The notes beneath the pieces are model-generated. The model searched no databases. It was given only the letters and a program-made list of their open reading frames with translations, and was not told the DNA's origin. Below, piece by piece: positions 6,657-46,953 of a stretch of 64,000 bases of DNA. Source of the DNA: Planctomycetota bacterium. Its GTDB lineage: Bacteria; Planctomycetota; GCA-002687715; CAIWVZ01. The position numbers and the translations under genes are program-made. The stretch lies in assembly GCA_044222185.1 (NCBI GenBank), contig JBGANV010000008.1, positions 160,001-224,000 on the forward strand. Direction: 5' to 3'. Position 1 is the stretch's first letter. Every line of letters starts with the position of its first letter.

Positions 6657-7022
6657 ATGCCGACACTCATCGAGAAGGCCACGCGCATCACGGCCGCGGG
6701 CAACAAGCCGAAGCTCATCGACGAATACGTGGGCCGAGTGAACTCGAAGACCGCCGACGTGAGCGTCGCGCACATGCGCTCGCCGGGCGGTTGGGTCGAG
6801 CCAGGCCAACGCCCCGAGTTCGACGAGTACACGCTCGTGCTGAAGGGCGCGCTGCAAGTCGACTTCGAAGGCGGCTCGCTGACGGTCCGGCCCGGGCAAG
6901 CCGTCATCACTCACCGCGGCGAGTGGGTTCGCTACTCGACGCCGGAGGCCGACGGCGCCGAGTACGTCGCCATTTGCCTGCCGGCGTTCGCGCCGTCGAC
7001 CGTGCACCGCGATCCGGCGTAG
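6657..7022 (+). CDS. Cupin domain protein (EutQ-like)
   Basis: KPKLIDEYVGRVNS, GWVEPGQRPEFDEYTLVLKG and GEWVRYSTP match a small cupin beta-barrel pattern. Confidence 0.85.
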   Translation: MPTLIEKATRITAAGNKPKLIDEYVGRVNSKTADVSVAHMRSPGGWVEPGQRPEFDEYTLVLKGALQVDFEGGSLTVRPGQAVITHRGEWVRYSTPEADGAEYVAICLPAFAPSTVHRDPA

Positions 7023-11820: not shown

Positions 11821-12036
11821 GACGATTTGACTCCAAGGGGTCGATGAGACCCGTGCATCCCGTCGATGCACCCCCCGTGCCAGGACGGGAAGTCCGCCGG
11901 AGGCCGCACATTCTGGGCGTGGGACGCGGGATGTACAACGAGCGCCCCGCCAACACCGGGAAATTGACCTGCCCCGTGGACATGGACGTCCTCAGCCGGG
12001 CGCAGATCGCAGTCGACTCGACACCGAGGAGCAGCC

Positions 12037-12612
12037 ATGGCCTGGATCCGACTCATCCAAGACGGGGAAGCGACCGGACTGCTGAAGCGATTGTTCGACG
12101 AGGCGATCGCGCGAGCCGGCCGCATCTGGAACATCGTCCGTGTGATGAGTCGGCGACCGAAGCAACTGGACGCGTCGATGGCGCTGTACCGAGAGGTGAT
12201 GTTCGGTGAGTCCGCACTCACGCGTGCCGAGCGCGAGATGGTCGCGGTCGTCGTGTCCGCCACCAACGGTTGCTTTTATTGAACCGTCGCACACGGATTT
12301 GATCTCCGGTCGGAGATCGACAAGACCGAACGAGTCGACGCGATCGTTCGGGAATGGCGAAATGCAGAGCTGTCGAAACGCGAGCGCGCGCTGTGCACGT
12401 TCGCCGAAGCGCTGACGAAGAACCCGGGTCACTCGCGAGAGAACGATCTCGCTCCGCTGCGCGAGGTCGGACTCGACGATGACGCGATCACCGATCTCGT
12501 TCAGGTGATCGCATACTTCAACTACATCAACCGCGTCGCTGATGGACTCGGTGTCGACCCGGAGCCGTTTTTCCCGTCGCGCGCTGAACATTCAGAGCAT
12601 CGAACGACGTGA
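12037..12612 (+). CDS. AhpD/CMD-family peroxidase-related selenoprotein (CxxU, in-frame UGA at 12280-12282), 191 aa
   Basis: GAGGAG RBS. LTRAEREMVAVVVSATNGCFY-TGA-TVAHG continues in frame with AhpD-like sequence (LSKRERALCTFAEALTKNP...LREVGLDDDAITDLVQVIAYFNYINRVADGLGV) to TGA 12610-12612. The UGA sits at the second Cys of CxxCxxxH. Confidence 0.88.
12299..12320 (+). promoter_or_regulatory. Putative bacterial SECIS hairpin
   Basis: GATCTCC-GGTC-GGAGATC forms a perfect 7-bp stem (12301-12318), extendable by two pairs. The loop starts with GG, 25 nt after the UGA. Confidence 0.7.
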
Positions 12613-12675
12613 TGCGTTTTCTTCCATCTCGCGATCGTGCGAAGTAGCATGTCGCGGACAACGGAAACGCATCAC

Positions 12676-13609: not shown

Positions 13610-14770
13610 ATGGCCGACGACCTCCTTAAATGGCGCCCTGAGTTCCCGATCCTCCAGAAGTCCGTCTACATGATCTCGAACTCGCTCGGCGCCATGCCGC
13701 GCGGCGTCTTCGACGAGATGAAGAACTTCGCGGAGATGTGGGCGACGCGCGGAGTGCGCGCGTGGCACGAGGGCTGGTGGGAGATGCCGATCACCGTCGG
13801 CAACATCCTGTGCGACATCCTGGGCGCACCGCACGGCACCATCACCATGCACCAGAACGTGTCGATCGCCGAGAGCATCCTGCTCTCGTGCTTCGACTTC
13901 TCCGGTCGGCGCAACAAGGTCGTGTACACGGACATGAACTTCCCGTCCGTGATGTACGTCTTCGAGGCGCAGAAGCGACGCGGTGCTCGCATCGTCATGG
14001 TGAAGAGCGACGACGGCATCGGGGTCGACACGCAGAAGCTGCTCGACGCCATTGACGAGGAAACGCTCCTCGTTCCGATCTCACACGTCCTCTTCCGCTC
14101 GGCATTCATCCAGGATGCCAAGGCGATCATCGAGAAGGCGCATCGCGTCGGGGCGAAGGTGATCCTCGACGTGTACCAGTCGGCCGGCACGGTGCCGCTG
14201 AACCTCACGGAACTGAAGACGGACTTCGCCGTGGGCGGCTCGGTCAAATGGCTCTGCGGCGGGCCCGGCGCGGGTTACCTCTACGTGCGACCCGATCTGG
14301 CGGCGACGCTCGAGCCGGCCTACACGGGCTGGCAGGCGCACGAGCGGCCGTTCGAGTTCGAGATCGGCCCGATCCATTACGCGAAGGATCAGTTCCGCTT
14401 CCTCAACGGAACACCGCACGTGCCGGCGCTCTATGCAGCGCAGTCCGGCTACAAGATCATTCGCGAGATCGGCGTGCCCCGCATCCGTGAGAAGTCGAAG
14501 CGCCTCGTGAAGATGATCATGGAGCGCGCGCTCGGGCACGGCATCAAGATCACCTGCCCGGCCAACGAGCATCAGCGCGGCGGGACGGTGGCGCTCGACG
14601 TCCCCGAAGGCAAGCAGGTCTGCGACGAGCTCATCCGCCGCGAGTTCGTCGTGGACTACCGCCCCAAGTCGGGCATCCGCGTCTCGCCGCACTTCTACTC
14701 GACGGAGGAGGAGTGTCTCGCCGTCGTCGACGAGGCCAAGAAGATTCTGCGGGAGAAGAACCTTGGGTGA
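13610..14770 (+). CDS. kynU: Kynureninase (aminotransferase class V, PLP-dependent)
   Basis: YMISNSLGAMP, NFPSV.Y, LDVYQSAG, GGSVKWLCGGPGAGYLYV (PLP Lys) and DYRP..GIRVSPHFY. Adjacent to kynB. Confidence 0.85.
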   Translation: MADDLLKWRPEFPILQKSVYMISNSLGAMPRGVFDEMKNFAEMWATRGVRAWHEGWWEMPITVGNILCDILGAPHGTITMHQNVSIAESILLSCFDFSGRRNKVVYTDMNFPSVMYVFEAQKRRGARIVMVKSDDGIGVDTQKLLDAIDEETLLVPISHVLFRSAFIQDAKAIIEKAHRVGAKVILDVYQSAGTVPLNLTELKTDFAVGGSVKWLCGGPGAGYLYVRPDLAATLEPAYTGWQAHERPFEFEIGPIHYAKDQFRFLNGTPHVPALYAAQSGYKIIREIGVPRIREKSKRLVKMIMERALGHGIKITCPANEHQRGGTVALDVPEGKQVCDELIRREFVVDYRPKSGIRVSPHFYSTEEECLAVVDEAKKILREKNLG

Positions 14771-15392
14771 GCGACGGATCTGGGACATCTCGCGCACCGT
14801 CGACGAATCGACGGCCGTCTGGCCCGGTGACACGGCGTTCTCCCGCAAGTGGGTGATGCGGATCGACGGCGGTTGCTCGTGCAACGTGTCGACGGTCACG
14901 CACACGGTCCACTGCGGGACTCACGCCGACGCACCGCTCCACTTCGTCGATGGCGCCGCGGGAATCGACGCCGTGGACCTGCGGAAGTACCTGGGACCGT
15001 GCCGCGTGCTGACGGCGAAGAGCGCCGATTGCCTTCGCGTCACCGACCTCGCCGGCCTCGATCTCGCGAAGGAAGAGCGGCTGCTCGTCCGCGGTCCGGA
15101 CGCGCTGCGCGACGACGAGTGGCGCGACGAGTTCTTTCATTGCTCCGTCGACGCCGCGCGTCACGCCGCGACTCACGGGCTTCGACTGCTCGGGCTCGAC
15201 ACGCCCTCGATGGACTTCATGACGTCGAGAGAGCTCGAGGCTCACAAGGCGTTGATCGCCGGCGGGGTCGCGATCCTCGAAAACCTGGACCTCTCGGCCG
15301 TGCCCGACGGTCGCTACGAGCTCATCGCGCTCCCGCTGCGCATCCGCGGCGCCGACGCGTCGCTCGTCCGCGCCGTGCTCCGCGAGATCTGA
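14763..15392 (+). CDS. kynB: Kynurenine formamidase (cyclase family)
   Basis: WDIS, VWPGD, HCGTHADAPLH (HxGTHxDxPxH), GLDTPSMD, ILENLDL and YELIALPL...ADAS.VRAVL. TTG start overlaps the kynU end. Confidence 0.88.
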   Translation: MGERRIWDISRTVDESTAVWPGDTAFSRKWVMRIDGGCSCNVSTVTHTVHCGTHADAPLHFVDGAAGIDAVDLRKYLGPCRVLTAKSADCLRVTDLAGLDLAKEERLLVRGPDALRDDEWRDEFFHCSVDAARHAATHGLRLLGLDTPSMDFMTSRELEAHKALIAGGVAILENLDLSAVPDGRYELIALPLRIRGADASLVRAVLREI

Positions 15393-18753: not shown

Positions 18754-21700
18754 TCAGTCACCTTTGACCGCGACCCGTACGCCGTCGCACCACGACTTCG
18801 CCTCGTCGGAGTAGTAGAGGTAGGCGCGGGAGGCGGCGCCAACGTAGGTTCCAGCGACGGCAGCGACGAGATTCAAACGGATGTTGACCACCTCGGACGG
18901 CTTCAGGCATCGCTTGTAGAACACGACGTCGCCGTCGCGGACCTCGTAGAAATCGGCCAATCCTGCCTTCACGAGTTCCTTCAATTGATCATGCCGAGGC
19001 TCGAGGCCGCCGGGGATGCCGACGATCGCGACGGCCATGGGCTGCCCCTCGGCGGTCGCGTTCGAGAACGTGACTTCGAGGTCGGTCGTTTCGCCCTGGC
19101 GCACGCTCGGCGATGCGAGCTTCGTCGCCAGCTTCACCTTGCAGTCGCCGGCCGACGGCGGCTTCTGCGTGTGGTAGCGAACCGTGATCGCGTAGGGCAT
19201 CTCCGATCCGCCATCCATCGCCAGCTCGATGCGATGGTTGCCGGCCGTCAACGTGTTCGTGAACGCCGGCATCTCGAGCGCACCTTTGTCGTCCGTCGTG
19301 AACGGGACCGTGCCGATCGCCTTGCCGTCGACGAGGAGCGTCACCTTCCCCGGAGCCTTCGGGCGCGCATTCGCCGCGTCGTATCCGAGGATCGCCTTCA
19401 GCGCGAGGATCGTGCTCTGCGTCGCGCCGAAGCGACCCCCCTGGCACTGCTGGAACAGCCAGATTGCAGCACGATCGCACGAAGGCATGTGACCGCCCGC
19501 GCGCAACCACGCCATGATGGCGAGGGATGTGGTCTCGACCTCGAGGCTCGTTCCGCTCGACCGCGTGATGCTCGTCGTTGCGCCCCGCACGGCGCCGTCC
19601 GTCCCCTGCTTGCCGTTGAGCCTGTCGAGGATCGCAGGCGCCTGCGGGTGCTTGCCCAGGTACATCACGTTGGCTGCGAGGGCGAGGAAGTAGGCATCAT
19701 CCGACTCCTTCGCCCGCGCCGCGACCCACTCGATTTCCTTCTCGAGTCCACGCTCGCCGGCCTCCAGCAGCGCCCACACGATGTAGGCATTCGTGATGTC
19801 GTCGGGCGCACCACCGAACGAGTCGAGCGCCTGCGGATTCCGCGTGAAGCCACCCTTCCCATCGCGGCGATCGCGCAGCCAGGAGCGCGTGCGCTCCAGC
19901 ATCGAGCGGTCGACGCCGTAGACGCGGCTCATGTCGACGAACTCCATCACGCCATAAGCGGTCAACGCTTCGTGTCCCGGATTGCCGCCAAACCACTCGT
20001 AGCCTCTCTCCTTGCACTCATACCCGGTCAAGCGCTTGTATCCCGAGTCGAGGAGCTGTTTGGCGCGCGCGAGCGTAGCGCCGTCGTCGACGTGATGCGT
20101 CGACAGGTACTCCATGACCAGCACGTTGGGGTATGCCGTCGAGCTCGTCTGCTCGAAACAGCCACACGGCTCGGTGAGCAACCCCTTCAGCGCATCCGTC
20201 AGCGTCGCGAGAGGCGAAGGGTAGATCCGCGCCTCCGCCACAAGGCTCGACGCGTCGAGCTGGTCGGGAATCACCAGGTCATGCGCGATGCGCTGCGTCA
20301 ACCGGCCGCCGAACGCGACCATCACGGGGAAGCCCGCGGGCACCACGCGGATGCGGCGCTTCACCTCATCGGTGAGCACCCCGGACTGCGCACGCACGAC
20401 GACGTCGACCCACCCGTTGAGCTTCCCTGCCACGAGGGTGAGGCGGCCCCGAGCCGAACCATTCGCGGGGACCTGGATCTCCGGATCGTTCCCCTCCTTG
20501 GTGACCCCGGCACCGGCGTCGGCCGTCAACGTCGCCGCCATCGCCGCGTCCGTGGCGTTGTTGATCGCGACCGGTATCTCCAGCACGTCGCCCGCGGTCA
20601 CGACGAGCGGAAGCTTGGGTTCGACGAAGAACGGCTTGCGGGACTCGATGACGGCATCCGCCGATCCCAGCGCTCCGTCCTTGCCGACGGCGTCGGCCAT
20701 CACGCGGAAACTCGTGATGGAATCGGAGAGGTCGAACGAGACCGCGGCGCGCCCCGTCGCGTCCGTCGATACACCGCAGTTCCAGTAGAGCACTTCGGTG
20801 AAGTCAGTTCGTTCCGAGGTCCGCCGATCGGGACGGCTCGCGTGGGCGTATTCGCGAACGACCACGCGCTTCTTGAATTCACCGATGTCGAGGGCCCGCG
20901 CGCGGTCATCGTCGCCCAAGAGAGCATCCCGCGCTTCCCCCGCCGGGGCTTCGAACTTGGGCTCGTTCTTCGGAGCGGCGGCCTTTCCCGCCGGAGCCGC
21001 GCCGAGGCGTGCGGCCCCGTCACGCGGCCCCGCGCCCATCCGCAATTCCTCCACGACGGCATCGACCATGGCGGCGCCGGGACCGCCGCCACCCGCGAGC
21101 CTTCCGAACTTGGTCACTTCGGGTTCTTCGACGACCGCGAAGGCGCGGCGCGCCGCATCGCCGTGCCTGGCGACGAACGCGCCCACGTCGACCCACGCGA
21201 ATCGCCTCCAGCCCTGCGTGCCGAGCAGGAGGTCGATGGCGACGTCGGCCGCGGGCCCCGTCTCGAAGAACCGCTCCGAGTCCATGAGCTCCTTCACGTC
21301 GGAACCGATCAGGGCCTGCGCAGGCAGTCGCGGCGCTCGCTCACGACGCTCGATCTGGTTGAGCACGGCGTCATCCGTCACACGCAAGCCGACGAGAGCC
21401 GGAACGGGCTTGCCGTCCTGGTCCGTCGTCGTGACGTCGACCGTCACCTTCTGCCCAGGCACGCCGCGTGTCGTCGAGGGTTTGACGGCGACGATCACGG
21501 CACGCGCTGGCTTGCGATAGATCAGCCGCTCGGCGCGAGGCGTTCCCTTGGAGTCAAGTACCGTCACCCGGAGGATGCCGTCGAACTCGGGCGCGATCTC
21601 GATGTCGCGCGTGACGCTCGTGCCCGCTTGCGCGGCGGCCGACTCCCGCTTGATCTCCTTGGCGAATCGAGCGACGACGACGGACACGGACTCATCGGAG

Positions 21701-22788
21701 GTGGCGCCGATCGACAGGCGCAGCGGTTCCGTGGGGCCGATCACGCGCCGCGCCGCATGCAGCGTGAATCCGCGGGGCAGCACTTCGGGCAGTTCGATCA
21801 CCTGCGTGTTGCCCACGGGCTTGTCGATGGCAAGCCTGTAGCGCGTCCCGGCTGCAGGAACGAAGCCGAAGCGCCCCCTCCCCTCGTGTCCCACTTCGAA
21901 CGTGGCGACTTGCGACCCGCTCGGGTCGAGAACGCGGCCGGACAGATCAACGGGCTTGCCGCGGACGTCACGAGCCTCGAAGTAGACGTGGTTCTCCACG
22001 CCTGCGACGAGATCGCCGCCTTCCGGATGGATCGCCACGTCGACCTTGTTCAGGACGATCGGGATCGTCTTCGCTGCCGTCTCCTGAACGCCGCCATCCT
22101 CGATCACGCAGGCAAGCGAGCCGTCGCCCGTCTCGACTTTCGAGGGGAGGACGAACTCGACGTGCCCCCGGCCGAGCCCGTCGAGGCGCGTCTCGCTCCG
22201 GTGGATTTCCCCACCATCGACGCGGGCGACGATCGTGACCTTGGCACCGGCCGGGATTCCGCCCTGGGCGCGCGTGACCGTGAGCGACGCCGCGACCGTC
22301 TCGCCGGCGCCGTAGCCCTTTCGCTCGAACTCCAGATCCGTGCGGAGGCGGGGCACGCGGTACGCACGCACGTCGAACTTGAGCTCGGCCGGCGGACAGC
22401 CGATCGACGGAAACGACGCCACCGCGGTGTACTCACCCCCGGCGACACCCTCGGGGATGGTCCATTCTGCGCCACCGCACCCGTTGGAGATCGACGCGCC
22501 GAGCTGCGCCACCGGATCGCCCTTCGGAGACTTGATCACGAGGCGTGCGGGACGGACTCCGCTGACGGGCACGCGCGTCGATGCGTCGAGGTGGAATGCC
22601 GTGAGCCGCACCGTTTCGCCCACGCGGTAGATCGGTTTGTCGCTTTGGATGAACGTCCGCGCACCCGGCGATGCGCTCGGCGTCAGGTCGACATCGGGCG
22701 TCGGCATGAGCGAAACGGCGACGAGGGCGACGACGAACGCGAGGCGAGCGCCGAGAGGCCGGATTGCGGCGGAGACTTCGGGAACCAT
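18754..22788 (-). CDS. Alpha-2-macroglobulin / thioester-containing protein
   Basis: MG2 start (FIQSDKPIYRVGETV), A2M domain (RTDFTEVLYW...FDLSDSITSFRV), thioester motif PCGCFEQ, TED helices (GYKRLTGYE, LTAYG, FGATQSTILALKA) and receptor-binding-like C-terminus (MAVAIVGIPGG...ASRAYLYY). Confidence 0.92.
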   Translation of the reverse strand: MVPEVSAAIRPLGARLAFVVALVAVSLMPTPDVDLTPSASPGARTFIQSDKPIYRVGETVRLTAFHLDASTRVPVSGVRPARLVIKSPKGDPVAQLGASISNGCGGAEWTIPEGVAGGEYTAVASFPSIGCPPAELKFDVRAYRVPRLRTDLEFERKGYGAGETVAASLTVTRAQGGIPAGAKVTIVARVDGGEIHRSETRLDGLGRGHVEFVLPSKVETGDGSLACVIEDGGVQETAAKTIPIVLNKVDVAIHPEGGDLVAGVENHVYFEARDVRGKPVDLSGRVLDPSGSQVATFEVGHEGRGRFGFVPAAGTRYRLAIDKPVGNTQVIELPEVLPRGFTLHAARRVIGPTEPLRLSIGATSDESVSVVVARFAKEIKRESAAAQAGTSVTRDIEIAPEFDGILRVTVLDSKGTPRAERLIYRKPARAVIVAVKPSTTRGVPGQKVTVDVTTTDQDGKPVPALVGLRVTDDAVLNQIERRERAPRLPAQALIGSDVKELMDSERFFETGPAADVAIDLLLGTQGWRRFAWVDVGAFVARHGDAARRAFAVVEEPEVTKFGRLAGGGGPGAAMVDAVVEELRMGAGPRDGAARLGAAPAGKAAAPKNEPKFEAPAGEARDALLGDDDRARALDIGEFKKRVVVREYAHASRPDRRTSERTDFTEVLYWNCGVSTDATGRAAVSFDLSDSITSFRVMADAVGKDGALGSADAVIESRKPFFVEPKLPLVVTAGDVLEIPVAINNATDAAMAATLTADAGAGVTKEGNDPEIQVPANGSARGRLTLVAGKLNGWVDVVVRAQSGVLTDEVKRRIRVVPAGFPVMVAFGGRLTQRIAHDLVIPDQLDASSLVAEARIYPSPLATLTDALKGLLTEPCGCFEQTSSTAYPNVLVMEYLSTHHVDDGATLARAKQLLDSGYKRLTGYECKERGYEWFGGNPGHEALTAYGVMEFVDMSRVYGVDRSMLERTRSWLRDRRDGKGGFTRNPQALDSFGGAPDDITNAYIVWALLEAGERGLEKEIEWVAARAKESDDAYFLALAANVMYLGKHPQAPAILDRLNGKQGTDGAVRGATTSITRSSGTSLEVETTSLAIMAWLRAGGHMPSCDRAAIWLFQQCQGGRFGATQSTILALKAILGYDAANARPKAPGKVTLLVDGKAIGTVPFTTDDKGALEMPAFTNTLTAGNHRIELAMDGGSEMPYAITVRYHTQKPPSAGDCKVKLATKLASPSVRQGETTDLEVTFSNATAEGQPMAVAIVGIPGGLEPRHDQLKELVKAGLADFYEVRDGDVVFYKRCLKPSEVVNIRLNLVAAVAGTYVGAASRAYLYYSDEAKSWCDGVRVAVKGD

Positions 22789-22954
22789 GTGGAACTCCGT
22801 TCCAGGTTGACTGCGGGCTGGCGGTCCGTGCACGCCCTCTGACGCGGCGCCGCGTCCGGAAGTTCCGCGGGGCCAACGCGGCCCGGATCGGGCGCCGATC
22901 GTCCCGTACTCGCATCTGCATCCCGCGCGGGTCCCTCAAAGGCGCGTTCGGCCC

Positions 22955-22960
22955 TATAAT
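22955..22960 (+). promoter_or_regulatory. Candidate -10 element for the clostripain gene
   Basis: Perfect TATAAT in the divergent intergenic region, 76 nt upstream of ATG 23037. No clear -35. Confidence 0.4.
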
Positions 22961-23036
22961 GGCCGCCCTTTGGGTTCCGCCTCAGCCTCCCCCGAGGCGT
23001 GTTCTGTCCGACACGAGAGACTCTCGAGATTCCTCC

Positions 23037-26000
23037 ATGACCAAACCACTTCCGCGACTGCGTCTCGCAGCCCTGCTGTGCATGCTCGCCACGACCGTGT
23101 TCGCCCAGGGCACGGCGAGTCAGCCGACGACGTCGGGACCGAAGACGGACTCGCAGCCGACCGACAAACGCGCGTCGAAGGATGTGGACTTGCGGAAGGA
23201 GTGCGGTGTTCTCGGCGACGTCTTCCGCCATCGGACGGCGCTTCACTTCCTGCGAAACGACAAGGAGGCGCGGGACGCAATCCTGAAGACGATCGATCCC
23301 GAGTCGGCGAACTCGGTCCGCAGCTTCGTGGAGAAGGACGAGCGATTCACCGAGCTCGACTATCACTTCGTCGAGAAGATGCGGAACTGCGAGCAACGCA
23401 TCCTGAACCGTCTCCGCGCCGATCGCTTCCAGGGGCTGGCCGACTTCCTCGAGGCGGTGAAGGAGAAGGCCTACCCGCAATCGGTCCCCTTCGCCAACCT
23501 GGTCGAGACGGTCGAGCTCAATGCGCGGTGGGCGGCGCGCTCGGGGCGGCTCGACAAGGACGATGACACGCTGAAGGACAGCCTCAAGAAGCTCGCCTCC
23601 GAAGCGGTGCGCATCGAAGGCACGTCCGGTCATTCCATGGACGAGATCGCGAAACTGGCATGGAAGGAGACGAAGCCGGACGACTTCCCCGCGAGCTGGT
23701 TCGATCAGAGCTCGGAGATCGTGTCGTACGAATTCGGCGTGATCCCCGAGGCGAAGGACTTCCCCCAGTTGGATCTGGCGACGGCGACGCGCGAGCAGTT
23801 CCTGACGTTGCCCGGCGTCGACGACGACATGGCGGACGGGTTCATCAAGTATCGGAAGCGCAACGGCATCCAGGGACCCGAGGAGCTGCGCTTCGTCGAG
23901 CAGATTCCGGCGCACATGGCCGAACCACTGCAATCCCTCTGCAGCGTGAGCCGGAGCGAGGTTGCCAAGCGCCCGAAGAAGAAGTGGACCGTCATGGTCT
24001 ACCTCAATGCCGCCAACAACCTGGAGCCGTTCGGCATCGGCGACATGAACGAAATGGAGCGCGTGGGCTCGACGTCAGAAGTGAACGTGGTCGTCGAGTG
24101 CGCACGCTTCCGCGGCAAGCAGGCGCTGAAACCCAACTCCCAGTACCTCTCGAATCCGTACTCGGATTTCAGCGGCGCGTTCTACTTCGGTCTCGACAAC
24201 TCGCCGGGGACCCGCCGCTATTACATGCTGAAGGACGACGACAAGGTCCGCCTGCGCTCCGTCCTCGTGGAGAACATCGGTGAGACCGATGCCGGGCGCC
24301 CCGAGCCTCTCGCGAATTTCGGCAGATGGGCCGTGGAGAACTATCCGGCCGAGCACTATTGCCTCGTGATCTGGAACCACGGCGCCGGCTGGGCCGGTGT
24401 TTCCATGGACGAGAACACCCATCACGGCATGGATCTGCCGGAGGTGCGCAGTGCGCTGGAATCGATCACGGCGGCGCTCGACAAGCAGGGAAAGAAGAAG
24501 ATCGACATCGTCGACTTCGACGCCTGCCTCATGGCGACGGTCGAGGTGGCGTACGAGCTGCGCGACCACGCCGATTTCCTCGTCGCGTCGCAAGAGACGG
24601 AACCCGGCGACGGGATCCCGTACACGGACTCCCTCGGCTGGCTCGCGCGCTTCCCCGAGGCTCCGGCCGCGTCGTTCGCCAAGGCGCTCGTCGAGACCTA
24701 CGTGAAGTCGTACGCACCCGAGGGCTCGCAAGTCGGCAGCGGCGACTTCTGGTCCGGCGGCGAAACGAAGTCGGTGATCCGACTGTCGCGCGTCGCCGAG
24801 GTGCGAGACGCGATCGAGGCCGTGGGCAAGCTCCTCCAAAAGAAGAACGACCTTCTCGGCGACGTGGCGGACGACCTCGTGAAGGAGTCCCGCAAATACA
24901 TGGGTCGCCTCGTCGACATGCAGGACTTCCTGACGCGCGTCTCGAAACACGAGAAGAGTGACCAGGAGCTGAAGGCCGCGGTCGAGCGCGTCACCGACCT
25001 CATCGGTTACCCGAACGACGGCAAGGACAAGCTCGTGAACGAGGTGGTGATCACCCGACGCACGGCAGGCGCCGTCGTGTGGGGTTTCAACGGCTGGGCG
25101 ACCCCACCGCGCAGCCTCGCGCCGTTCGTCTCGGGCTCGCGTTACGCCAAAACGCCCCTCACGGGTCCTGATGAGAAGGGCAATTACACGGCGAACATCA
25201 AGTTCCCACCCATGCTCCGCAACACGAAGAGCGGCAAGATGGAGTTCGTGAAGGAGATCAATTACCGCTTCGAAGACGATGGCGAGAAACGCACGGTGAA
25301 AGACTTCGCGAACACGTTCTTCACGACGGATTTCCCGTCCGACAGCGCGGTCGTCGCCGAGGGACACAACATCGGCAACAACCGATCGCACGGGATCTCG
25401 CTCTACTTCCCCGCTTATCTCGGCTTCGACAAGAACTATCGGCGGCTCCAGTTCTCGCAGGACTCGGCCTGGGCAGCGTTGTGCGAGAAGTTCCCCATCA
25501 AGAAGATCGAGAAGCGGGCCCCCATCGCGCTGCTCGGACTGAATCACGTGACGAAGGCCGACCGCGAGACCTTCGGCGCGCTCGCCGTGCGCGAAGCCCT
25601 CGAGAAGAAGGTCCGCGCGCACGATTGGAACACGACGTACGTGTCCGATCTCGGCACGATGAAGCGGACGGCCGACGGCATCCGAGATCCCCGTCCCTAT
25701 GGCGAGGACTGGGCGGAGACGCTCGCGCATTACACGGACGGCACCGTGATCCTCGACAACCACAGCGGCGGCGAGCTTGGCGGCGGTGGAGCCGACATGT
25801 CGGAGATGTTCGCCATGATGATGGGCGGAGGTTCGGCGCCGCGGTTGCCCCGGGCCGTCGGCCCCGAGGGGCGCCAGGTGCTGCGCTATCTGCAGGCTGG
25901 CGGGCGGCTCCTCCTCGGCACGTCGGCTGCGACGCAGACCGTCTGGGACACACCGCTCTATCGCGACGCGCTGGGCCTCGAATACGTCCGCACCTGGAAC

Positions 26001-26405
26001 CGCGGATACGCCTTCAAGCTCGCGCGGCCGGCGACGGCGAAGCCAGACACGACTTTCGAAGTCGAGCCGGCCCGGAAGGGCGAGGCGGTCACGGTGTTCG
26101 CCGCGCGCGACGGCGTCGAAGGCATCGAGCCGTTCGCACTGCTGCCCGACGGCCAGATGATCGGCGCCAAGATCGCCCGCGTGGATTCGACCACGCGCAA
26201 GCCCTACCGCGCCGTGATCCTCGGCTTCTACCTCACCGACGTGAAGGGTGACGACAATCGCCGCGCGATCCTGAAGGAAGCCCTGGAGTTCCTAACGCCG
26301 TCGGCGGCTCCGGCACCGTCCCTCCCGATCGCCGCCGACTCACGACCGGCGCCGGCGGGCGAAGTCCTGATCGGCACGAAGTCGACGGGGACCGGCGGCG
26401 GCTGA
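23037..26405 (+). CDS. Secreted clostripain-family (C11) cysteine peptidase with ComEA-like helix-hairpin-helix domain
   Basis: Signal peptide ends VFA|Q. The HhH segment is LDLATATREQFLTLPGVDDDMADGFIKYRKRNG. C11 motifs are KKWTVMVYLNAANNLE, LVIWNHGAGW (His), DFDACLMATVEV (Cys), ASQETEPGDG and SHGISLYFP. Confidence 0.9.
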   Translation: MTKPLPRLRLAALLCMLATTVFAQGTASQPTTSGPKTDSQPTDKRASKDVDLRKECGVLGDVFRHRTALHFLRNDKEARDAILKTIDPESANSVRSFVEKDERFTELDYHFVEKMRNCEQRILNRLRADRFQGLADFLEAVKEKAYPQSVPFANLVETVELNARWAARSGRLDKDDDTLKDSLKKLASEAVRIEGTSGHSMDEIAKLAWKETKPDDFPASWFDQSSEIVSYEFGVIPEAKDFPQLDLATATREQFLTLPGVDDDMADGFIKYRKRNGIQGPEELRFVEQIPAHMAEPLQSLCSVSRSEVAKRPKKKWTVMVYLNAANNLEPFGIGDMNEMERVGSTSEVNVVVECARFRGKQALKPNSQYLSNPYSDFSGAFYFGLDNSPGTRRYYMLKDDDKVRLRSVLVENIGETDAGRPEPLANFGRWAVENYPAEHYCLVIWNHGAGWAGVSMDENTHHGMDLPEVRSALESITAALDKQGKKKIDIVDFDACLMATVEVAYELRDHADFLVASQETEPGDGIPYTDSLGWLARFPEAPAASFAKALVETYVKSYAPEGSQVGSGDFWSGGETKSVIRLSRVAEVRDAIEAVGKLLQKKNDLLGDVADDLVKESRKYMGRLVDMQDFLTRVSKHEKSDQELKAAVERVTDLIGYPNDGKDKLVNEVVITRRTAGAVVWGFNGWATPPRSLAPFVSGSRYAKTPLTGPDEKGNYTANIKFPPMLRNTKSGKMEFVKEINYRFEDDGEKRTVKDFANTFFTTDFPSDSAVVAEGHNIGNNRSHGISLYFPAYLGFDKNYRRLQFSQDSAWAALCEKFPIKKIEKRAPIALLGLNHVTKADRETFGALAVREALEKKVRAHDWNTTYVSDLGTMKRTADGIRDPRPYGEDWAETLAHYTDGTVILDNHSGGELGGGGADMSEMFAMMMGGGSAPRLPRAVGPEGRQVLRYLQAGGRLLLGTSAATQTVWDTPLYRDALGLEYVRTWNRGYAFKLARPATAKPDTTFEVEPARKGEAVTVFAARDGVEGIEPFALLPDGQMIGAKIARVDSTTRKPYRAVILGFYLTDVKGDDNRRAILKEALEFLTPSAAPAPSLPIAADSRPAPAGEVLIGTKSTGTGGG

Positions 26406-30441: not shown

Positions 30442-31138
30442 GGTCGGGTCCTCCGGGACTTCGCTCAGCGGGCCCCACGGATGGGCCGCAGCGAACTCAT
30501 GTCCGTATCAACGGAATCCGAAGCCGTGGGCGTCGCGGAATCCCCCGGGCGGCCTGATTGCAGCCAGACCGGAAGCGGCGCGCGCCAACGGTGCGGAGTC
30601 CGCCCACGGCCTGGCCGTCCACGGCTCTGCGTTGATCCAGCGACGCGGGATTCTCGGTGCGGAGGCAACAGGCCGCGTCCGAAAGGACGGGACTTGGTTC
30701 GGAAACTCCAGCGAGGCGGCGACGTACGGCCTGCGCCGGACGCGCGTGGTGCAAACTTCGATCGTTTGAAACGGTCCGTTCCGGTCCGCGCCCGACGACG
30801 TTCCTCAGGGGATCACGCTGGCGGTCGTCGAGACGCTCCGCGCGTCCGCCAGTCCAGGAGTCCCATGGGAAGGAACTTGCCGTCCGTTCGATGACTGCGC
30901 CGGGCCGTTGCCGCTGCAAAGTCCGGTACTGCGCGGGGGACGCAGACTTCGCGGGCTTCTGCAACGACATGCGGGATCGAGCCGTCGCCGCCCTCGAAGA
31001 AGCTCGTCAGCGCGATCGGCCGCCCGTCGGGTAGTCTGACTTCATGGCCGACCGCGAAGTTCATCGCACGCTCACGATCGACTGCGGTCCGCGCGCGGCG
31101 TGGGCGGGGTCGACGTTCGGAGTCGGCTGAGGCGTCGC

Positions 31139-33889
31139 ATGGAACCGCACGAATCCGCTTCGACGCTGAACGAGTTCCTGCATCGCTTCCTCGACGACCG
31201 CGACCGCGGCCGGATCGCCTCGCTCGAGGAGTATCAGGCGACCTTTCCCGAAGCGGCGGACGCGATCGCCACGGAGTACGAGCGACTGACCTCCACGGGC
31301 GACGCCGAAGCGGCGAGCCCGGATGCGATGGCTGAACGCCAGAGTTCCCTCGGCGGCGGCTCGCGCATCGGCCCCTATCGCATCGTCCGTCGTCTGGGAC
31401 GCGGCTCGTTCGGGCTCGTCTTTCTCGCCGAGGACGTCCGCCTCGCGCGCCAGGTCGCGCTGAAACTACTGGCTCGCGCGGGCCTCGAGTCCGACCGGGA
31501 ACGCGCCCTCTTCGAACGCGAAGCCGGTATCGCCTCGCGCCTCGACCACCCGGGAATCTGCACGGTGTTCGACGTGGGACGGCACGGAATCTGGACGTGG
31601 ATCGCCATGCGCTACATCCCCGGCGAAACGCTCGCAGAGCGCCTCACGGCGCCGAGTGATCGCCTGACGCTGCGCGAGATCCTCACGATGATCGAGAAGG
31701 TCGCGCGCGCACTGGACGTCGCGCACGAGACCGGCGTCGTTCATCGCGACGTGAAGCCGGGGAACATCATGGTGACGCCCGACGGCGAGCCGATCGTCGT
31801 CGACTTCGGACTCGCGCGCGATCGGTCGATCGGGGCACCGACGCTGACGTTGAGCGGCGAGGCCACGGGAACGCCCGCGTACATGTCGCCCGAGCAGATC
31901 GATTCCGCGCGGGGGGTCGTCGACCATCGCACGGACGTGTGGTCGCTGGGGGTGACGCTCTACGAAGCGGTCACGGGCGAGCGCCCCTTCGACTCCCCCA
32001 CTCAGGCCGGGTTGTTTCGGGCCATCCTCGACTCCGAGCCGCCGGCACCCGTCCGGGATCGAAAGCGCGTGGGCCGAGACCTCGCGATCATCATCCAGAC
32101 CGCGCTCGCGAAAGACCGCGAACGCCGCTACGAGTCGGCGGCAGGGTTCGCCGACGACCTGCGCCGATTGATGACCCACGAGCCCATCCGCGCACGGCCC
32201 ATGGGCCTCGCGAGCCGAACGTTCCGCTGGGCCAGGCGCAACCGCCTCGTGGCAGCCCTCCTCGTCGTCGTCACGGGCCTTTTCATCGGCGGCATCGCGA
32301 CGACGGCTGCGCTGCTGGCGCGCGCCCGGACCAACCTCGAGGACTGGGAGCGACTCGCCGACGGTCGGAAACTCGAGGAACTCGAGCGGATCGCGCGCGA
32401 TGAACTGGTACCGATCGTTCCGGAGAAGGCGGACGCAATGGAGCCGTGGCTTGCCGCCGCGCGGGCACTCGTCGCTCGACTCGACGATCATCGCCAGGCT
32501 CTCGAGTCGATGCGACGTAGAGCTCGCCCCGAGACCGAATCGACGCGACTTCGCGAAGAGCGGCGCCGCGAGCAGCCGCGCGCCGACCTGAAGATCCTCG
32601 ATCTCGCCATCGAAAACCTCCGCCTGCATCGGGCGAACGTCGAACGGGTGTTCGGGACGCCGGAATCGCGCCGGAGTGCGGATCAGCTGCTGAAGAACCG
32701 GCTCCGCGTGCTGGCTCAGCGCCGCGCGGCGGCGGCGGCCAACATCGCCGCGCGAACGGTCTTCGATTTCGACGACGACCGGGATCAGCTCCAGCACGAC
32801 AGACTGGCGGATCTGATCGCCGGACTCGAGCGGTTTGCATTCGGAGGCCCAGGGGTCCCCTCGCTCCTCGCCAACGTGGAGGATCGCCTCGCGACCGCGC
32901 GGGGGCTTCGGGCTCGAACGATCGATTCGCACCGCGAGGCCTGGAACGCCGCCATCGACCGCGTCAGCCGCAATCCGCTCTACCGTGGCCTCATCCTTCG
33001 CGAGCAGGTGGGGCTGATTCCGATCGGATGCGATCCCTCGACGACCCTCGAAGAGTTCGTCGACGGCCGCATGGGAGCGATCCCGACGCGTGATGAGCGG
33101 CGCCAGTTCCGCGTGGAGTCCGAGACGGCGATCGTGTTCGTGCTTCTGCCCGGCGGCACGCTCACCCAGGGGGCTCAGCGCGACCGTCCCACGTCACCGC
33201 AGTTCGATCCCGCGTCGACCGCCGACGAGATCCCCCTGACGACGGTGCCGCTGGACCCGTTCTTCATCGGGAAGTTCGAGGTGACCCAGGGGCAGTGGAT
33301 GCGCTGGCTCGACGACCTCCCGAGCGGGTACGAAGTCGGCGCGTCGGAGGGCGGTGAGGTCGTCGATCTCCGGCACCCGGTGGAATCGGTGAGCTGGCAC
33401 GACTGCACGTACATCCTGCGCGCCTATGGGTTCTCGTTGCCTACGGAGGCCCAGTGGGAGTACGCGTGCCGCGCGGGAACCGGGACCCCCTACTTCTGCC
33501 GCGAGGACGAGCTGTTCCGATTCGCCAACCTCGCCGACATGACGTTCGACCGCGTCGTCCAGTCGCGCGGGTACAAGACGGAGGCCTGGGACGACGGCCG
33601 TTATCTGCACGCGCCGGTGGGCGTGTTCCGCGCCAACGGCTTCGGGCTGCACGACATCCTCGGGAACGTCTCCGAGTGGTGTCTGGACTGCTACGGGAAC
33701 TATGCCGAGCCGGCTCGCCGCGGCGACGGATTGCGTGACGGAGCGGACAAGCGGTATCGGGCCGTGCGTGGCAGCTCGTGGATCGGGAGTGCGGCACACG
33801 CGCGCTCCGCCTCCCGCAATCGCACCGAGCCGGGAAGTCGCGGTGTGAGCATCGGGCTTCGCGTCGCACGCGCCCTCTCCACGCCGTGA
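31139..33889 (+). CDS. Hanks-type Ser/Thr kinase - TM - coiled coil - FGE-sulfatase (CLec-fold) sensor
   Basis: LGRGSFGLV, VALK, HRDVKPGN, DFG, GTPAYMSPEQ and DVWSLG. TM helix LVAALLVVVTGLFIGGIA. FGE motifs are FIGKFEVTQGQW, PVESVSW, LPTEAQWEYACRAG, NGFGLHDILGNVSEWC and RGSSW...GLRVAR. Confidence 0.93.
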   Translation: MEPHESASTLNEFLHRFLDDRDRGRIASLEEYQATFPEAADAIATEYERLTSTGDAEAASPDAMAERQSSLGGGSRIGPYRIVRRLGRGSFGLVFLAEDVRLARQVALKLLARAGLESDRERALFEREAGIASRLDHPGICTVFDVGRHGIWTWIAMRYIPGETLAERLTAPSDRLTLREILTMIEKVARALDVAHETGVVHRDVKPGNIMVTPDGEPIVVDFGLARDRSIGAPTLTLSGEATGTPAYMSPEQIDSARGVVDHRTDVWSLGVTLYEAVTGERPFDSPTQAGLFRAILDSEPPAPVRDRKRVGRDLAIIIQTALAKDRERRYESAAGFADDLRRLMTHEPIRARPMGLASRTFRWARRNRLVAALLVVVTGLFIGGIATTAALLARARTNLEDWERLADGRKLEELERIARDELVPIVPEKADAMEPWLAAARALVARLDDHRQALESMRRRARPETESTRLREERRREQPRADLKILDLAIENLRLHRANVERVFGTPESRRSADQLLKNRLRVLAQRRAAAAANIAARTVFDFDDDRDQLQHDRLADLIAGLERFAFGGPGVPSLLANVEDRLATARGLRARTIDSHREAWNAAIDRVSRNPLYRGLILREQVGLIPIGCDPSTTLEEFVDGRMGAIPTRDERRQFRVESETAIVFVLLPGGTLTQGAQRDRPTSPQFDPASTADEIPLTTVPLDPFFIGKFEVTQGQWMRWLDDLPSGYEVGASEGGEVVDLRHPVESVSWHDCTYILRAYGFSLPTEAQWEYACRAGTGTPYFCREDELFRFANLADMTFDRVVQSRGYKTEAWDDGRYLHAPVGVFRANGFGLHDILGNVSEWCLDCYGNYAEPARRGDGLRDGADKRYRAVRGSSWIGSAAHARSASRNRTEPGSRGVSIGLRVARALSTP

Positions 33890-33928
33890 TCCGCGCAGCG
33901 CGGGGGGAGTCGCAGACCGCCGCCCAGC

Positions 33929-34591
33929 TCAATCGAGACCTCGCTCCGCCTCCGCCTCGCGGGCCACGTCATCGAACGCCGATTCCGGGAGCTGCTCGCG
34001 CAGGCGCGCCAACGCGCGGTGGAGCCTGACGTTCACCGCGTTGGCCGCGAGGCCGAGGCGGGCGGCGACCTCGGCAGCCGGCTGTTGCTCCACCAGCCTG
34101 AGCACGATCACTTCCCGATCCTGCGGGTCCATTGCCGACAGGGTCCGAGCGACCAGGCCATCACGCTCTCGGCGGATGATCTCGCTCCAGACGCCGGGCG
34201 CGCGATCGGCCACGCCATCGAGTCCCGGGCCGCCGTCCGTCGACGCAGCGCCTCGCGCCGTCGGCCTGCGCGCCTCGCTCCGAAGCAGCTCGTTCACCCG
34301 AAGCAGCACCGCCCGGGACAGGAATCGAAACAACACCGGCGTGTATCGTCCGTCGCGCGCCACGAGATCCGCAAGCCGCGGCAGCGCGACCTGCCACGCA
34401 TACTCGACGACATCCTCGGGGTCGCACACGTGCCGAAGCCGATCGCGCATGCGATAGCGGGCCTGCTGGACGAGGATCGGCGAGATCCGCGCGACAGTCC
34501 AATCGAGATCGCCGGCATCCCCGTCGATCGCCCCGCGAATCCGGCGCGACGTGCCAGTGAACGAGCGTCGGTCGTCGGCGCGCTCCGTCAT
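33929..34591 (-). CDS. ECF RNA polymerase sigma factor (kinase-associated type)
   Basis: Sigma2 DPEDVV and sigma4 DREVIVLRLVEQQPAAEVAARLGLAANAVNVRLHRALARLR. Paralog of 46279-46953. Confidence 0.9.
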   Translation of the reverse strand: MTERADDRRSFTGTSRRIRGAIDGDAGDLDWTVARISPILVQQARYRMRDRLRHVCDPEDVVEYAWQVALPRLADLVARDGRYTPVLFRFLSRAVLLRVNELLRSEARRPTARGAASTDGGPGLDGVADRAPGVWSEIIRRERDGLVARTLSAMDPQDREVIVLRLVEQQPAAEVAARLGLAANAVNVRLHRALARLREQLPESAFDDVAREAEAERGLD

Positions 34592-34689
34592 GGCCCAGAG
34601 AGTACTCTCGCGGGGCGCAGCCGGCACCACGGGATCCCGGCTCGATTCCGCGCAAGCTCCTCATCGGGCCGCGAGAGCCACGGGATCGA

Positions 34690-43701: not shown

Positions 43702-46254
43702 ATGGAACGCGGCGAAACGTCACACGAGCCACGAATCGGCGGAGCCTCGCCTCCTCCCGGCGAGGAGGCGGTTCTCGCCGAGTTCCTCGACGTCTACGCG
43801 ACGGACGCCGCGCGCGGCGCGACGCGTACGCTCGAGGAGTACCAGGGCATGTTCCGCGGCTTCGAGGACGCCGTGGCGCGCAGCTTCGAACGACTCCGCG
43901 CGCCGTCGGCGGAACGGCACGAGGAGCCGGAGCGGATCGGCCGCTTCCGCCTGCTGTCCGAGCTGGGCCGCGGAGGCCAAGGCGTCGTCTACCTCGCGGA
44001 GGACGAGCGTCTCGGCCGGCGCGTGGCGCTCAAGGTCATTCGCGGGATCGGCGCGTTCCGCCCCGAAGTCCTCGCGCGGTTCGAGCGCGAGGCCGCGATC
44101 GCGTCGCGTCTGGACCACCCGGGGATCTGCACGGTGCACGAGGCCGGCCAGTCCGGGTCGACCGCGTGGATCGCCATGCGGTACGTGCCCGGGACGACGC
44201 TCGCATCGGTTCTGCGTTCCCAGGCCGGCCGCCCGGACGCCGGGCGGATCGACGCGTTCACAGAGATCGTCGAACGTGCTGCACGCGCACTCCATGCGGC
44301 ACACGAAGCTGGAATCATCCATCGCGACATCAAACCGGCGAACGTCATGCTCGCGCCCGACGGCGCGCCCGTGCTTCTCGACTTCGGCGTCGCACACGAG
44401 TTGCGCGAGGACGCCCACGAGGGGCTGACCGTGACTGGAGACCTGCTCGGAACGCCGGCCTACCTGTCGCCCGAGCAGATCGACCCGGCGCGCGGCCCCA
44501 TCGACCGCCGGTCGGACGTGTGGGCGCTCGGCGTCACGTTGTTCGAGGCGACGACAGGCGCTCGGCCGTTCGACTCCCCGACGCGCGATGGAATGGTGCG
44601 AGCGATCCTCGATCGGGAGATTCCCGATCCCAGGCGCGTGAACCCGGCAATCTCGCGGGATCTTCGCGCCGTGCTCGCGACCGCGATCGAGAAAGATCCG
44701 CGGCGCCGGTACGCGACGGCGGCCGATCTCGCCGACGACCTCGCGCGGTTGCGCGCGCGGCAGCCCGTGCGGGCGCGACCCGCGGGCGTGCTCGTCCGGA
44801 CGCGGCGCTTCTGCCAGCGCGAGCCGCTGGTCGCATGGAGCCTCGCCGTGGCGTTCGTCGGGTTGGCAGTAGGGCTCGTCATCGCGCTGGGTTCGCTCGC
44901 GAACGCGCAGCGGCAGCGTGATGCGACGGAGACTGCGCTGCGCGCCTACGACCAGTTGGCGGACGTCGTCGTCGTCGCCGATCTGCTCGCGACCGTGGAC
45001 GATCTCTGGCCACGGCGCCCGGAGAAGCTCGTCGCCATCCGGGAATGGGTCGCCTCGGCGCGCGAGGTCCTCGCTCGCCGCGAGATGCATCGGCAGGCAT
45101 TGTCCCTGCTCGGTGCTCGCCGCGACGGCGATGCCGTTGACGCACGCGTGCGGTGGCGCCGCTCGATCCTCGAAACGTTGATGTCCGATCTGGGGCGCCT
45201 GGAGACGGCGGTTGCCGACGTGGCGAAGAGGGAGGCGATCGCGTCCGACGTCGTCCGTCGCACCATCACCGAGCACGAAGCGCGATGGCGCGAGTGCATC
45301 GACCAGCTCGGCGGCGATCCCCGGTTCGCTCACGTCCATCTGGAGCCACGGCCCGGATTGATTCCGCTTGGTCGCAACCAGGACTCGGGGAACTGGGAAT
45401 TCTGGCTCGCGGAGAGCGGTGATGCGCCAGCCGTCAACACGTCGGATTCCGTGAAGCGCGCGGTCGTCGGCGACGCGACGGGGCTCGTCTTCGTCCTCCT
45501 TCCCGGTGGATCGTTCACCATGGGCGCACAGGCCGTGGATCCGGACGCACCGACGTTCGACCCCGCCGCCCGATCGGACGAAGCGGTCGCGACCGTGATG
45601 CTCGATCCATTCTTCATCTCGAAGTTCGAGATGACGCAGGGACAGTGGCTCACGATCGCGGGCACGAACCCCTCGACCTACTCGCCGGAGCGCGTGCTCT
45701 ACGGCGCACCGGCCACGCTCGCTCACCCGGTCGAACAGGTGGACTTCAACACCGCGCGGAAGGTCCTCCGCAGGCTCGACCTCGACCTCCCGACGGAAGC
45801 ACAGTGGGAATACGCCTGCCGCGCGGGCACGAACACGGCCTGGTCGACGGGCCACGACGTCCATGCGCTCGCGGGCGCGGCGAACCTGGCCGACTCGGCG
45901 TTCAAGCGTGCGCAATCAGGCGATCCCGCCACGGGCGTGGAGCTCTGGTTGGATGACCGATATCCATGTCACGCGCCGGTCGGCACGTTCGCGCCCAATC
46001 CGCTCGGCCTTCACGACATGCACGGCAACGTCCTCGAGTGGTGTCTCGACGCGTACGTTCCGGCGCCGCACGCACCGAGGCCCGGCGACGGTCTTCGAGA
46101 GGCCGGCGAGGGTCCCACGGGTGTTGCTCGCGGCGGCAGTTTCTACACCGACGCCGCCGTCGCACGGTCCGCGGCCCGGTTCGCGCCGCGCCGGTCGAAT
46201 GCCGCGATCTATCTGGGAGTCCGGCCCGTCATGGCGGCTCGCCTCACGCGCTGA
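43702..46254 (+). CDS. Hanks-type Ser/Thr kinase - TM - FGE-sulfatase (CLec-fold) sensor, paralog of 31139-33889
   Basis: LGRGGQGVV, VALK, HRDIKPAN, DFG and GTPAYLSPEQ. TM helix LVAWSLAVAFVGLAVGLVIAL. FGE motifs are FISKFEMTQGQW, LPTEAQWEYACRAG, GLHDMHGNVLEWC and RGGSF...GVRP. Confidence 0.93.
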   Translation: MERGETSHEPRIGGASPPPGEEAVLAEFLDVYATDAARGATRTLEEYQGMFRGFEDAVARSFERLRAPSAERHEEPERIGRFRLLSELGRGGQGVVYLAEDERLGRRVALKVIRGIGAFRPEVLARFEREAAIASRLDHPGICTVHEAGQSGSTAWIAMRYVPGTTLASVLRSQAGRPDAGRIDAFTEIVERAARALHAAHEAGIIHRDIKPANVMLAPDGAPVLLDFGVAHELREDAHEGLTVTGDLLGTPAYLSPEQIDPARGPIDRRSDVWALGVTLFEATTGARPFDSPTRDGMVRAILDREIPDPRRVNPAISRDLRAVLATAIEKDPRRRYATAADLADDLARLRARQPVRARPAGVLVRTRRFCQREPLVAWSLAVAFVGLAVGLVIALGSLANAQRQRDATETALRAYDQLADVVVVADLLATVDDLWPRRPEKLVAIREWVASAREVLARREMHRQALSLLGARRDGDAVDARVRWRRSILETLMSDLGRLETAVADVAKREAIASDVVRRTITEHEARWRECIDQLGGDPRFAHVHLEPRPGLIPLGRNQDSGNWEFWLAESGDAPAVNTSDSVKRAVVGDATGLVFVLLPGGSFTMGAQAVDPDAPTFDPAARSDEAVATVMLDPFFISKFEMTQGQWLTIAGTNPSTYSPERVLYGAPATLAHPVEQVDFNTARKVLRRLDLDLPTEAQWEYACRAGTNTAWSTGHDVHALAGAANLADSAFKRAQSGDPATGVELWLDDRYPCHAPVGTFAPNPLGLHDMHGNVLEWCLDAYVPAPHAPRPGDGLREAGEGPTGVARGGSFYTDAAVARSAARFAPRRSNAAIYLGVRPVMAARLTR

Positions 46255-46278
46255 CGCAGGAAGCGCGCCCCGGCTTCG

Positions 46279-46953
46279 TCACGCGTCCGACAGCTCGTCG
46301 ATGAACGACGGCGGCAGACAGTCGCGCAGCTCCGCGAGGGCGCGCGCGTACCGCATGCGCAGGGTGCCTTCATCGACGCCGAGCTTGCTCGCGGCGACGG
46401 CGTAGGGCATCTCTTCGATGGCCCGCAGGATGAGGATCTCGCGATGAGCCGGGGTGAGCGCCAGCAGCATCGCGTCGATCCGACCGACGGACTCGCGCCG
46501 CATGCACTGCGTGACGACGCCAGCGACATCGGCCGTGATCTCGCGGCTGTCGCCCCTCTCCTCCGCGTTCGAACCTCCCAATTCCACCACGCCCGGTTTC
46601 CCAGCCACGTGCTTCTCGATGAGGTGCTGATAGCTGCGCAGGAGTATGGTTCCGAGGAAGCGGAGCAGCACCGGCGTGAAGCGGCCCTCGCGCGCGACGA
46701 TGTTGCCGAGCTTCGGCAACGCGGCCGCCCACACCTTCTGCACGAGGTCTTCGGGGTCGTAGAGACCCTGCAGATGTCGGCTCAGTCGGTATCGTGCCTG
46801 CGTCATGAGGAGCGGCGTGAAGTGTTCGACGATCCACTCGAGACTGACGCGCTCGCCCTCGATCGCACGCCGGACGTGCAGGCTCGTCACGTCGGAACCA
46901 CTCACGGGCGGTCGGTTCCGCGTTCGGTCGGAATCGGGAGGAACTGTGGGCAT
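46279..46953 (-). CDS. ECF RNA polymerase sigma factor (kinase-associated type)
   Basis: DPEDLVQKVW and HREILILRAIEEMPYAVAASKLGVDEGTLRMRYARALAELR. Paralog of 33929-34591. Confidence 0.9.
   Translation of the reverse strand: MPTVPPDSDRTRNRPPVSGSDVTSLHVRRAIEGERVSLEWIVEHFTPLLMTQARYRLSRHLQGLYDPEDLVQKVWAAALPKLGNIVAREGRFTPVLLRFLGTILLRSYQHLIEKHVAGKPGVVELGGSNAEERGDSREITADVAGVVTQCMRRESVGRIDAMLLALTPAHREILILRAIEEMPYAVAASKLGVDEGTLRMRYARALAELRDCLPPSFIDELSDA

Follow-up and report, generated by a model that had tools for sequence, protein, structure and literature searches.

An AhpD-like gene of the CxxU selenoprotein family, with an in-frame UGA and a conserved SECIS hairpin, in Planctomycetota DNA

A short gene on the + strand of the window, which is the whole 64-kb stretch of Planctomycetota DNA that was analysed (64,000 nucleotides), raises the question of whether its in-frame TGA ends a protein or is read through. 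The frame opens with an ATG at 12037 and runs for 81 codons to a TGA at 12280-12282, after which it stays open for another 109 codons up to a second TGA at 12610-12612. Standard gene callers return an 81-aa ORF for what would be a 191-aa gene (12037..12612, +). The first-pass annotation had placed the first TGA at the second Cys position of the AhpD motif, with 109 more codons behind it, and re-reading of the frame gave the same result: codon 82, the putative Sec codon, lies in the context C-F-Y-TGA-T-V-A-H. When the window was filtered for TGA codons with open frames on both sides, coding-like composition, a Cys redox motif and a SECIS element, the codon-82 TGA was the sole site left. With regard to the signals around the gene, a putative Shine-Dalgarno-like GAGGAG (12026..12031, +) is found 5 nt upstream of the ATG, while a search for a promoter-like site for the gene found none. 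The weak terminator-like hairpin that spans the stop codon (12597..12615, +) is not significant, with one found against a chance expectation of 2.1.

The readthrough protein, with U scored as C, matches the TIGR01926 profile with 171.3 bits against a cutoff of 81.8 and covers positions 1-177 of 178. The parts upstream and downstream of the TGA match positions 1-81 and 84-177 of this profile, respectively, and are therefore consecutive pieces of one family member. Furthermore, the AhpD core profile TIGR00778, which describes the E-x11-CxxCxxxH helix-turn-helix, is matched above its cutoff (41.5 against 27.8 bits). The protein has a fold related to that of NF041238 (AhpD_rel_CFYUT) and to that of NF053654 (YciW-related (seleno)proteins), and its CFYUT is identical to the motif in the name of the former; however, it falls below the cutoffs of both, with 82.2 of 175 bits for NF041238, a profile of 357 aa, and 30 of 310 bits for NF053654.

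AhpD-like selenoproteins have been known for some time. The family was described in 2005 from 27 Sargasso Sea sequences (PMC1088965), followed by 299 "AhpD-like 1" sequences in the GOS data (PMC2398784), in line with the statement of the first-pass annotation that AhpD-like CxxU selenoproteins are known from metagenomes. The family also has a BSepDB page (PMC13326102), and a table of selenoprotein families of prokaryotes from 2026 lists it as "AhpD-like protein, TIGR01926, CxxU" (PMC13188914). The likeness of the window gene to this family is one of profile and motif, namely a TIGR01926 score above the cutoff and CxxU, and what is new is the sequence only, at about 63% identity to the nearest genome relative found. 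Judged from its sequence, the gene is a real but ordinary new member of a selenoprotein family known since 2005.

Homologous loci were collected in one scan of GTDB genomes with the subfamily alignment, and were chosen by the pattern YFNYINR[VI]. The sample consists of the best 80 of at least 575 confirmed loci, none of them from the genome of the window itself, and represents the closest relatives rather than the whole family. These 80 loci encode proteins with 46-63% identity to the window protein, the nearest being at about 63%, and comprise 35 Planctomycetota, 24 Chloroflexota, 7 Acidobacteriota, 6 Actinomycetota, one each of Verrucomicrobiota, Pseudomonadota and Gemmatimonadota, and 5 unclassified loci. 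The first-pass annotation had asked whether homologues carry TGA or Cys at codon 82: TGA is present in all 80 (best 80 of at least 575; seven phyla), followed by 97-173 open codons, and the hairpin described below is conserved as well. Within the active-site helix-turn-helix (12235..12294, +), E67, C79, Y81, U82 and H86 are each invariant in 81 of 81 genes, as are Y160, F161, N162, Y163, N165 and R166 of the YFNYINR motif in the C-terminal half (12514..12534, +). A third cysteine, C120 (12394-12396), is retained in 71 of the 81 genes and is also present in 6K40, a homologue of solved structure. The part downstream of the TGA is under purifying selection, and not under the relaxed selection that the first-pass annotation had considered, with uncorrected pN below pS in all of the 25 closest of 64 pairs, the pN of the downstream half being usually above that of the upstream half.

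Five of the 80 loci are from Ca. Actinomarina (L044, L052, L053, L065 and L070, 10001-10549) and carry the AhpD-like Sec gene with the same hairpin. A tblastn search of plasmids returned distant homologues only, all below 60% identity and at 32-44% among the 25 listed of 656. In Thermus plasmids from this search (H10-H12) a TIGR01926 gene lies beside a cyclase-family gene, possibly by coincidence.

Inside the coding region, at codons 89-94, a hairpin (12299..12320, +) follows the UGA. Its 7 Watson-Crick pairs (12301-12307 with 12312-12318) enclose the loop GGTC (12308-12311), 25 nt past the UGA, as the first-pass annotation had described, and the stem stretches to 9 pairs by the addition of G-U and A-U, with -12.5 kcal/mol and a z-score of -2.4. 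The agreement with the general bacterial SECIS model that had been put forward was also reproduced, with our own script rather than bSECISearch and with the criteria of PMC13188914, section 5 (loop of 3-9 nt, stem of 4-16 bp, G in the first two loop positions, spacing of 16-37 nt, MFE of at most -7.5 kcal/mol): the loop is of 4 nt, the stem of 9 bp, the loop starts with GG, the spacing is 25 nt and the energy in this test is -11.8 kcal/mol. Of the 1440 TGA triplets of the window, 175 pass this model and 38 are equally strong; moreover, the 101-nt region around the hairpin has a z-score of -0.61, and an Rfam scan of the window gave no match to SECIS or any other family. The hairpin of this single sequence, taken alone, is weak evidence, and its significance comes from its conservation in homologues.

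In the ungapped alignment of 81 sequences, 81% of the cells of the stem are paired, against 34-48% in slid registers. Changes on both sides of a pair were counted in 19 cells against 5.6 in shuffles, with none of 500 shuffles as high, although two of the five covariation measures do not rise above the shuffles and relatedness can inflate the others. RNAalifold, unprompted, returned the same stem with its central four pairs. Two codons of the hairpin are nearly fixed, Leu90 being CTC in 73 of 74 cases and Arg91 being CGG or CGT in 79 of 80 (best 80 of at least 575), even in genomes of 32% GC; their codon entropies are 0.10 and 1.07 bits, respectively, against 1.55-2.41 bits at 38 other conserved degenerate columns. 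This codon use holds the first two loop bases to G[G/U], in agreement with the published rule for bacterial SECIS loops (PMC13188914, section 5). A strict test for a perfect stem is passed by 56 of the 80 loci (best 80 of at least 575) against 808 of 8000 control positions in the same genes, and the 24 of 80 that fail the strict -7.5 kcal/mol test mostly have shorter stems at the same place. Because of the compensatory changes and the nearly fixed synonymous codons, the hairpin is a selected bacterial SECIS.

Protein databases give a more varied picture of the site. Among 82 full-length homologues, 38 carry Trp there, 35 Cys, 7 Gly and 2 Arg, and 36 of the 120 database matches are C-terminal fragments, many of which start with M or V just past the site. 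A quick tree groups 32 of the Trp proteins and five TGA-bearing loci in a single clade with full support, so that Trp at the site is probably an artefact of gene callers using code 4; one Trp protein (P0002) is 95% identical to the product of locus L053, whose DNA has TGA. Seven other proteins (P0004, P0007, P0011, P0012 and P0032-P0034) have the motif TxxC, with Thr at 79 and Cys at 82, and are nested in the TGA group of the quick tree; here Sec appears to have been replaced by Cys and the first Cys to have been lost. Two proteins have Arg at the Sec position (P0003 and P0027), which could be due to mutation of one base of the TGA, to an error in sequencing or to real decay.

With regard to the selenocysteine machinery, selA, selB and selD have no match within the 64-kb window, where ARAGORN found no tRNA, and no tRNA-Sec was found in the 80 loci with flanks of up to 10 kb. 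Genes of this machinery lie beside 3 of the 80 loci (best 80 of at least 575; 1.2 Mb of flanks), all above NCBIfam cutoffs. In the Planctomycetota locus L047, selB follows the gene on its strand after 167 nt; in L009, also of Planctomycetota, selA and selB are about 3 kb from the gene; and selD is present at L050. Some planctomycetes use Sec (PMC4807772). For Actinomarina, a 2026 preprint (10.64898/2026.04.03.716425) reports that all 84 complete genomes carry selA, selC and selD together with a selB of divergent sequence, and describes the selenoproteins of the genus as mostly uncharacterised; the word "AhpD" is absent from its main text.

Two further candidate selenoprotein genes were seen in the homologous loci. 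In L012 (3-992, -), a DUF3179 gene (200 bits for the Pfam family when read through) at a distance of about 0.7 kb from the AhpD-like gene has a SECIS-like hairpin and, within a UxxC motif, an in-frame TGA at 659; it likely encodes a second selenoprotein. In L074 (6561-7160, -), a frame with a TGA at 6803 encodes what by eye is a thioredoxin-like UxxC with a lipoprotein-like N-terminus, again with a SECIS-like hairpin; this candidate has no match in Pfam or NCBIfam.

As had been noted, cysS, and with it a 288-aa ORF, lies divergently to the window gene, on the - strand. A functional link to cysS was rejected, since cysS is near the gene in only one of the 80 loci (best 80 of at least 575) and the neighbourhood is local synteny only. 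The nearest named CysS, at 72%, is from Planctomycetota. Downstream, transglutaminase-like, kynureninase-like and arylformamidase-like genes follow in this order, the last two (13610-15392, +) both scoring below NCBIfam cutoffs, and a functional link to kynU/kynB was likewise rejected, as each occurs in 1 of 80 loci. Two Planctomycetota loci, L001 and L025, have neighbouring genes in common with the window, which, together with the CysS match, makes a host in the Planctomycetota probable. No conserved partner gene emerged, the 15 annotated recurrent neighbour families (of 45 listed) being generic or unassigned, and a scan of window genes around it identified no ahpC. Elsewhere in the window, two similar pairs (31100-34630 and 43702-46953) each include a Ser/Thr kinase fused to an FGE-sulfatase domain, which in each pair is convergent with a sigma-70 region 4 gene. 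A large gene for a clostripain-family peptidase and an alpha-2-macroglobulin-like gene diverge from each other (18754-26405), which makes a protease and inhibitor pair possible.

Taken together, the TGA shared by all 80 loci, the covarying hairpin, the two matching parts of TIGR01926, the purifying selection and the sel genes beside some homologues argue for one intact 191-aa selenoprotein in which UGA 82 would be decoded as Sec. We give this reading, which is that of the first-pass annotation, a probability of about 0.93. A different decoding, in which a host devoid of Sec machinery would translate the UGA as Cys or some other amino acid by a route without Sec, would agree with the lack of sel genes in the window, with cysS at about 1 kb and with the Trp and Arg residues (38 and 2 of 82) of database homologues. 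However, the hairpin fits the model for SelB binding, sel genes adjoin homologues (L009, L047 and L050), cysS accompanies only 1 of the 80 loci (best 80 of at least 575), and the Trp residues probably go back to gene calling, given the clade of 32 Trp proteins with five TGA loci; we regard this route as very improbable. A targeted literature search on UGA-to-Cys recoding found nothing relevant. Scarcely more probable than this route is the broader proposal that the host, or some carrier lineage, without selA, selB and tRNA-Sec uses the conserved hairpin to control readthrough of the UGA, with Cys as one possible residue. If true, such hairpin-controlled readthrough without Sec machinery would be a SelB-independent route of programmed recoding.

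A true stop, with the split pair made by stop and restart, would account for the 36 C-terminal halves in the 120 database matches, many of which have M or V as their first residue, directly past the site. Restart is nonetheless unlikely: the next codon is ATG or GTG in only 9 of 80 loci (best 80 of at least 575), and in the window gene the first in-frame ATG, GTG or TTG comes only at codon 157. Moreover, splitting the protein would cost it the second redox residue and interrupt the catalytic helix (H80-93 of the predicted structure), and overall this explanation appears less probable still than a non-Sec decoding. A sequencing error or a pseudogene has in its favour that TGA is the usual stop here, used by 21 of 23 family-matched genes, and is refuted by the conservation of the same TGA across 80 of 80 independent genomes (best 80 of at least 575), including the syntenic L001 and L025, together with pN below pS downstream in 25 of the 25 closest of 64 pairs; of all the explanations considered it is the least credible, with a probability close to nil. 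Genome-wide reassignment of UGA (codes 4/25) was rejected on the basis of the same 21 of 23 family-matched window genes ending in TGA, and kynB ends where its profile ends.

An AlphaFold model, built with Cys replacing Sec from a 42-sequence alignment, has a pLDDT of 94.4 and the all-helical AhpD/CMD fold, with residue 82 inside helix 80-93. Its best structural match is 6K40 (TM 0.86, rmsd 1.6, 41% identity), which we infer to be DR1765, and by sequence the closest proteins of solved structure are AhpD-like ones from Deinococcus, which carry Cys at this position (6K40/2OYO; E 6e-38). The D. radiodurans proteins have the same E..CxYCxxxH arrangement as the window protein but differ from it in having Cys instead of Sec at the second position, as PDB homologues do in the codon-82 column, and in lacking the D-L-R-x-E stretch that encodes the hairpin. 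The spacing of E67, C79, Y81, U82 and H86 is that of the proton relay of PA0269 (Glu36/Cys48/Tyr50/Cys51/His55), and such a five-residue relay is described for both PA0269 and the M. tuberculosis AhpD (PMC3141380); on TIGR00777, the mycobacterial-type AhpD profile, the window protein scores far below the cutoff, with 26.3 against 191.95 bits. The peroxidase activity of PA0269 is weak and the substrates of AhpD-like proteins are mostly not known (PMC3141380).

If UGA 82 is decoded as Sec, SelB would bind the G-containing hairpin loop 25 nt past the UGA and deliver Sec-tRNA(Sec), giving a C79-x-x-U82 redox centre in which E67, Y81 and H86 could serve as a proton relay within the AhpD fold. The selenolate at 82 would then, most likely, reduce hydroperoxides or oxidised thiol partners, a C79-U82 selenosulfide would close with C79 as the resolving residue, and a donor would re-reduce the enzyme. 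From homology, we infer a peroxidase or thiol-reductase activity. Sec usually sits at the catalytic position, and the seven nested proteins that keep Cys 82 but have Thr 79 point to U82 as the nucleophile. The relay residues, though not the identity of the attacking Cys, are confirmed in PMC6300522, and in Sestrin2 the first Cys is catalytic and the second is not (PMC4674687), which speaks against U82 as the nucleophile.

The function could also be a different one with Sec still inserted, such as that of a selenium-based reductive dehalogenase like Bmp8 or another small-molecule reductase. The debrominase Bmp8 has the same fold (6OHI, TM 0.77), the little-known substrates of AhpD-like proteins (PMC3141380) leave room for it, and no AhpC-type partner is seen among the 15 annotated of the 45 listed recurrent neighbour families; even so, the identity to Bmp8 is 20% against 41% to the Deinococcus AhpD, whose loss raises H2O2 sensitivity (review PMC8945050), and the annotated neighbours offer no dehalogenation context. 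We consider such a function unlikely, if less so than any of the alternatives to Sec insertion discussed above. A targeted literature search, with subscription journals mostly outside it, found no biochemical study of a Sec-form member and only a review.

Reading the gene through corrects its annotation from an 81-aa fragment to a 191-aa enzyme, and its annotation as a selenoprotein predicts Sec machinery in the host genome. The subfamily, which databases often mangle into C-terminal fragments or proteins with Trp at the site, gains a tight SECIS signature. Finally, the five Ca. Actinomarina loci provide a named candidate redox selenoprotein for this genus.
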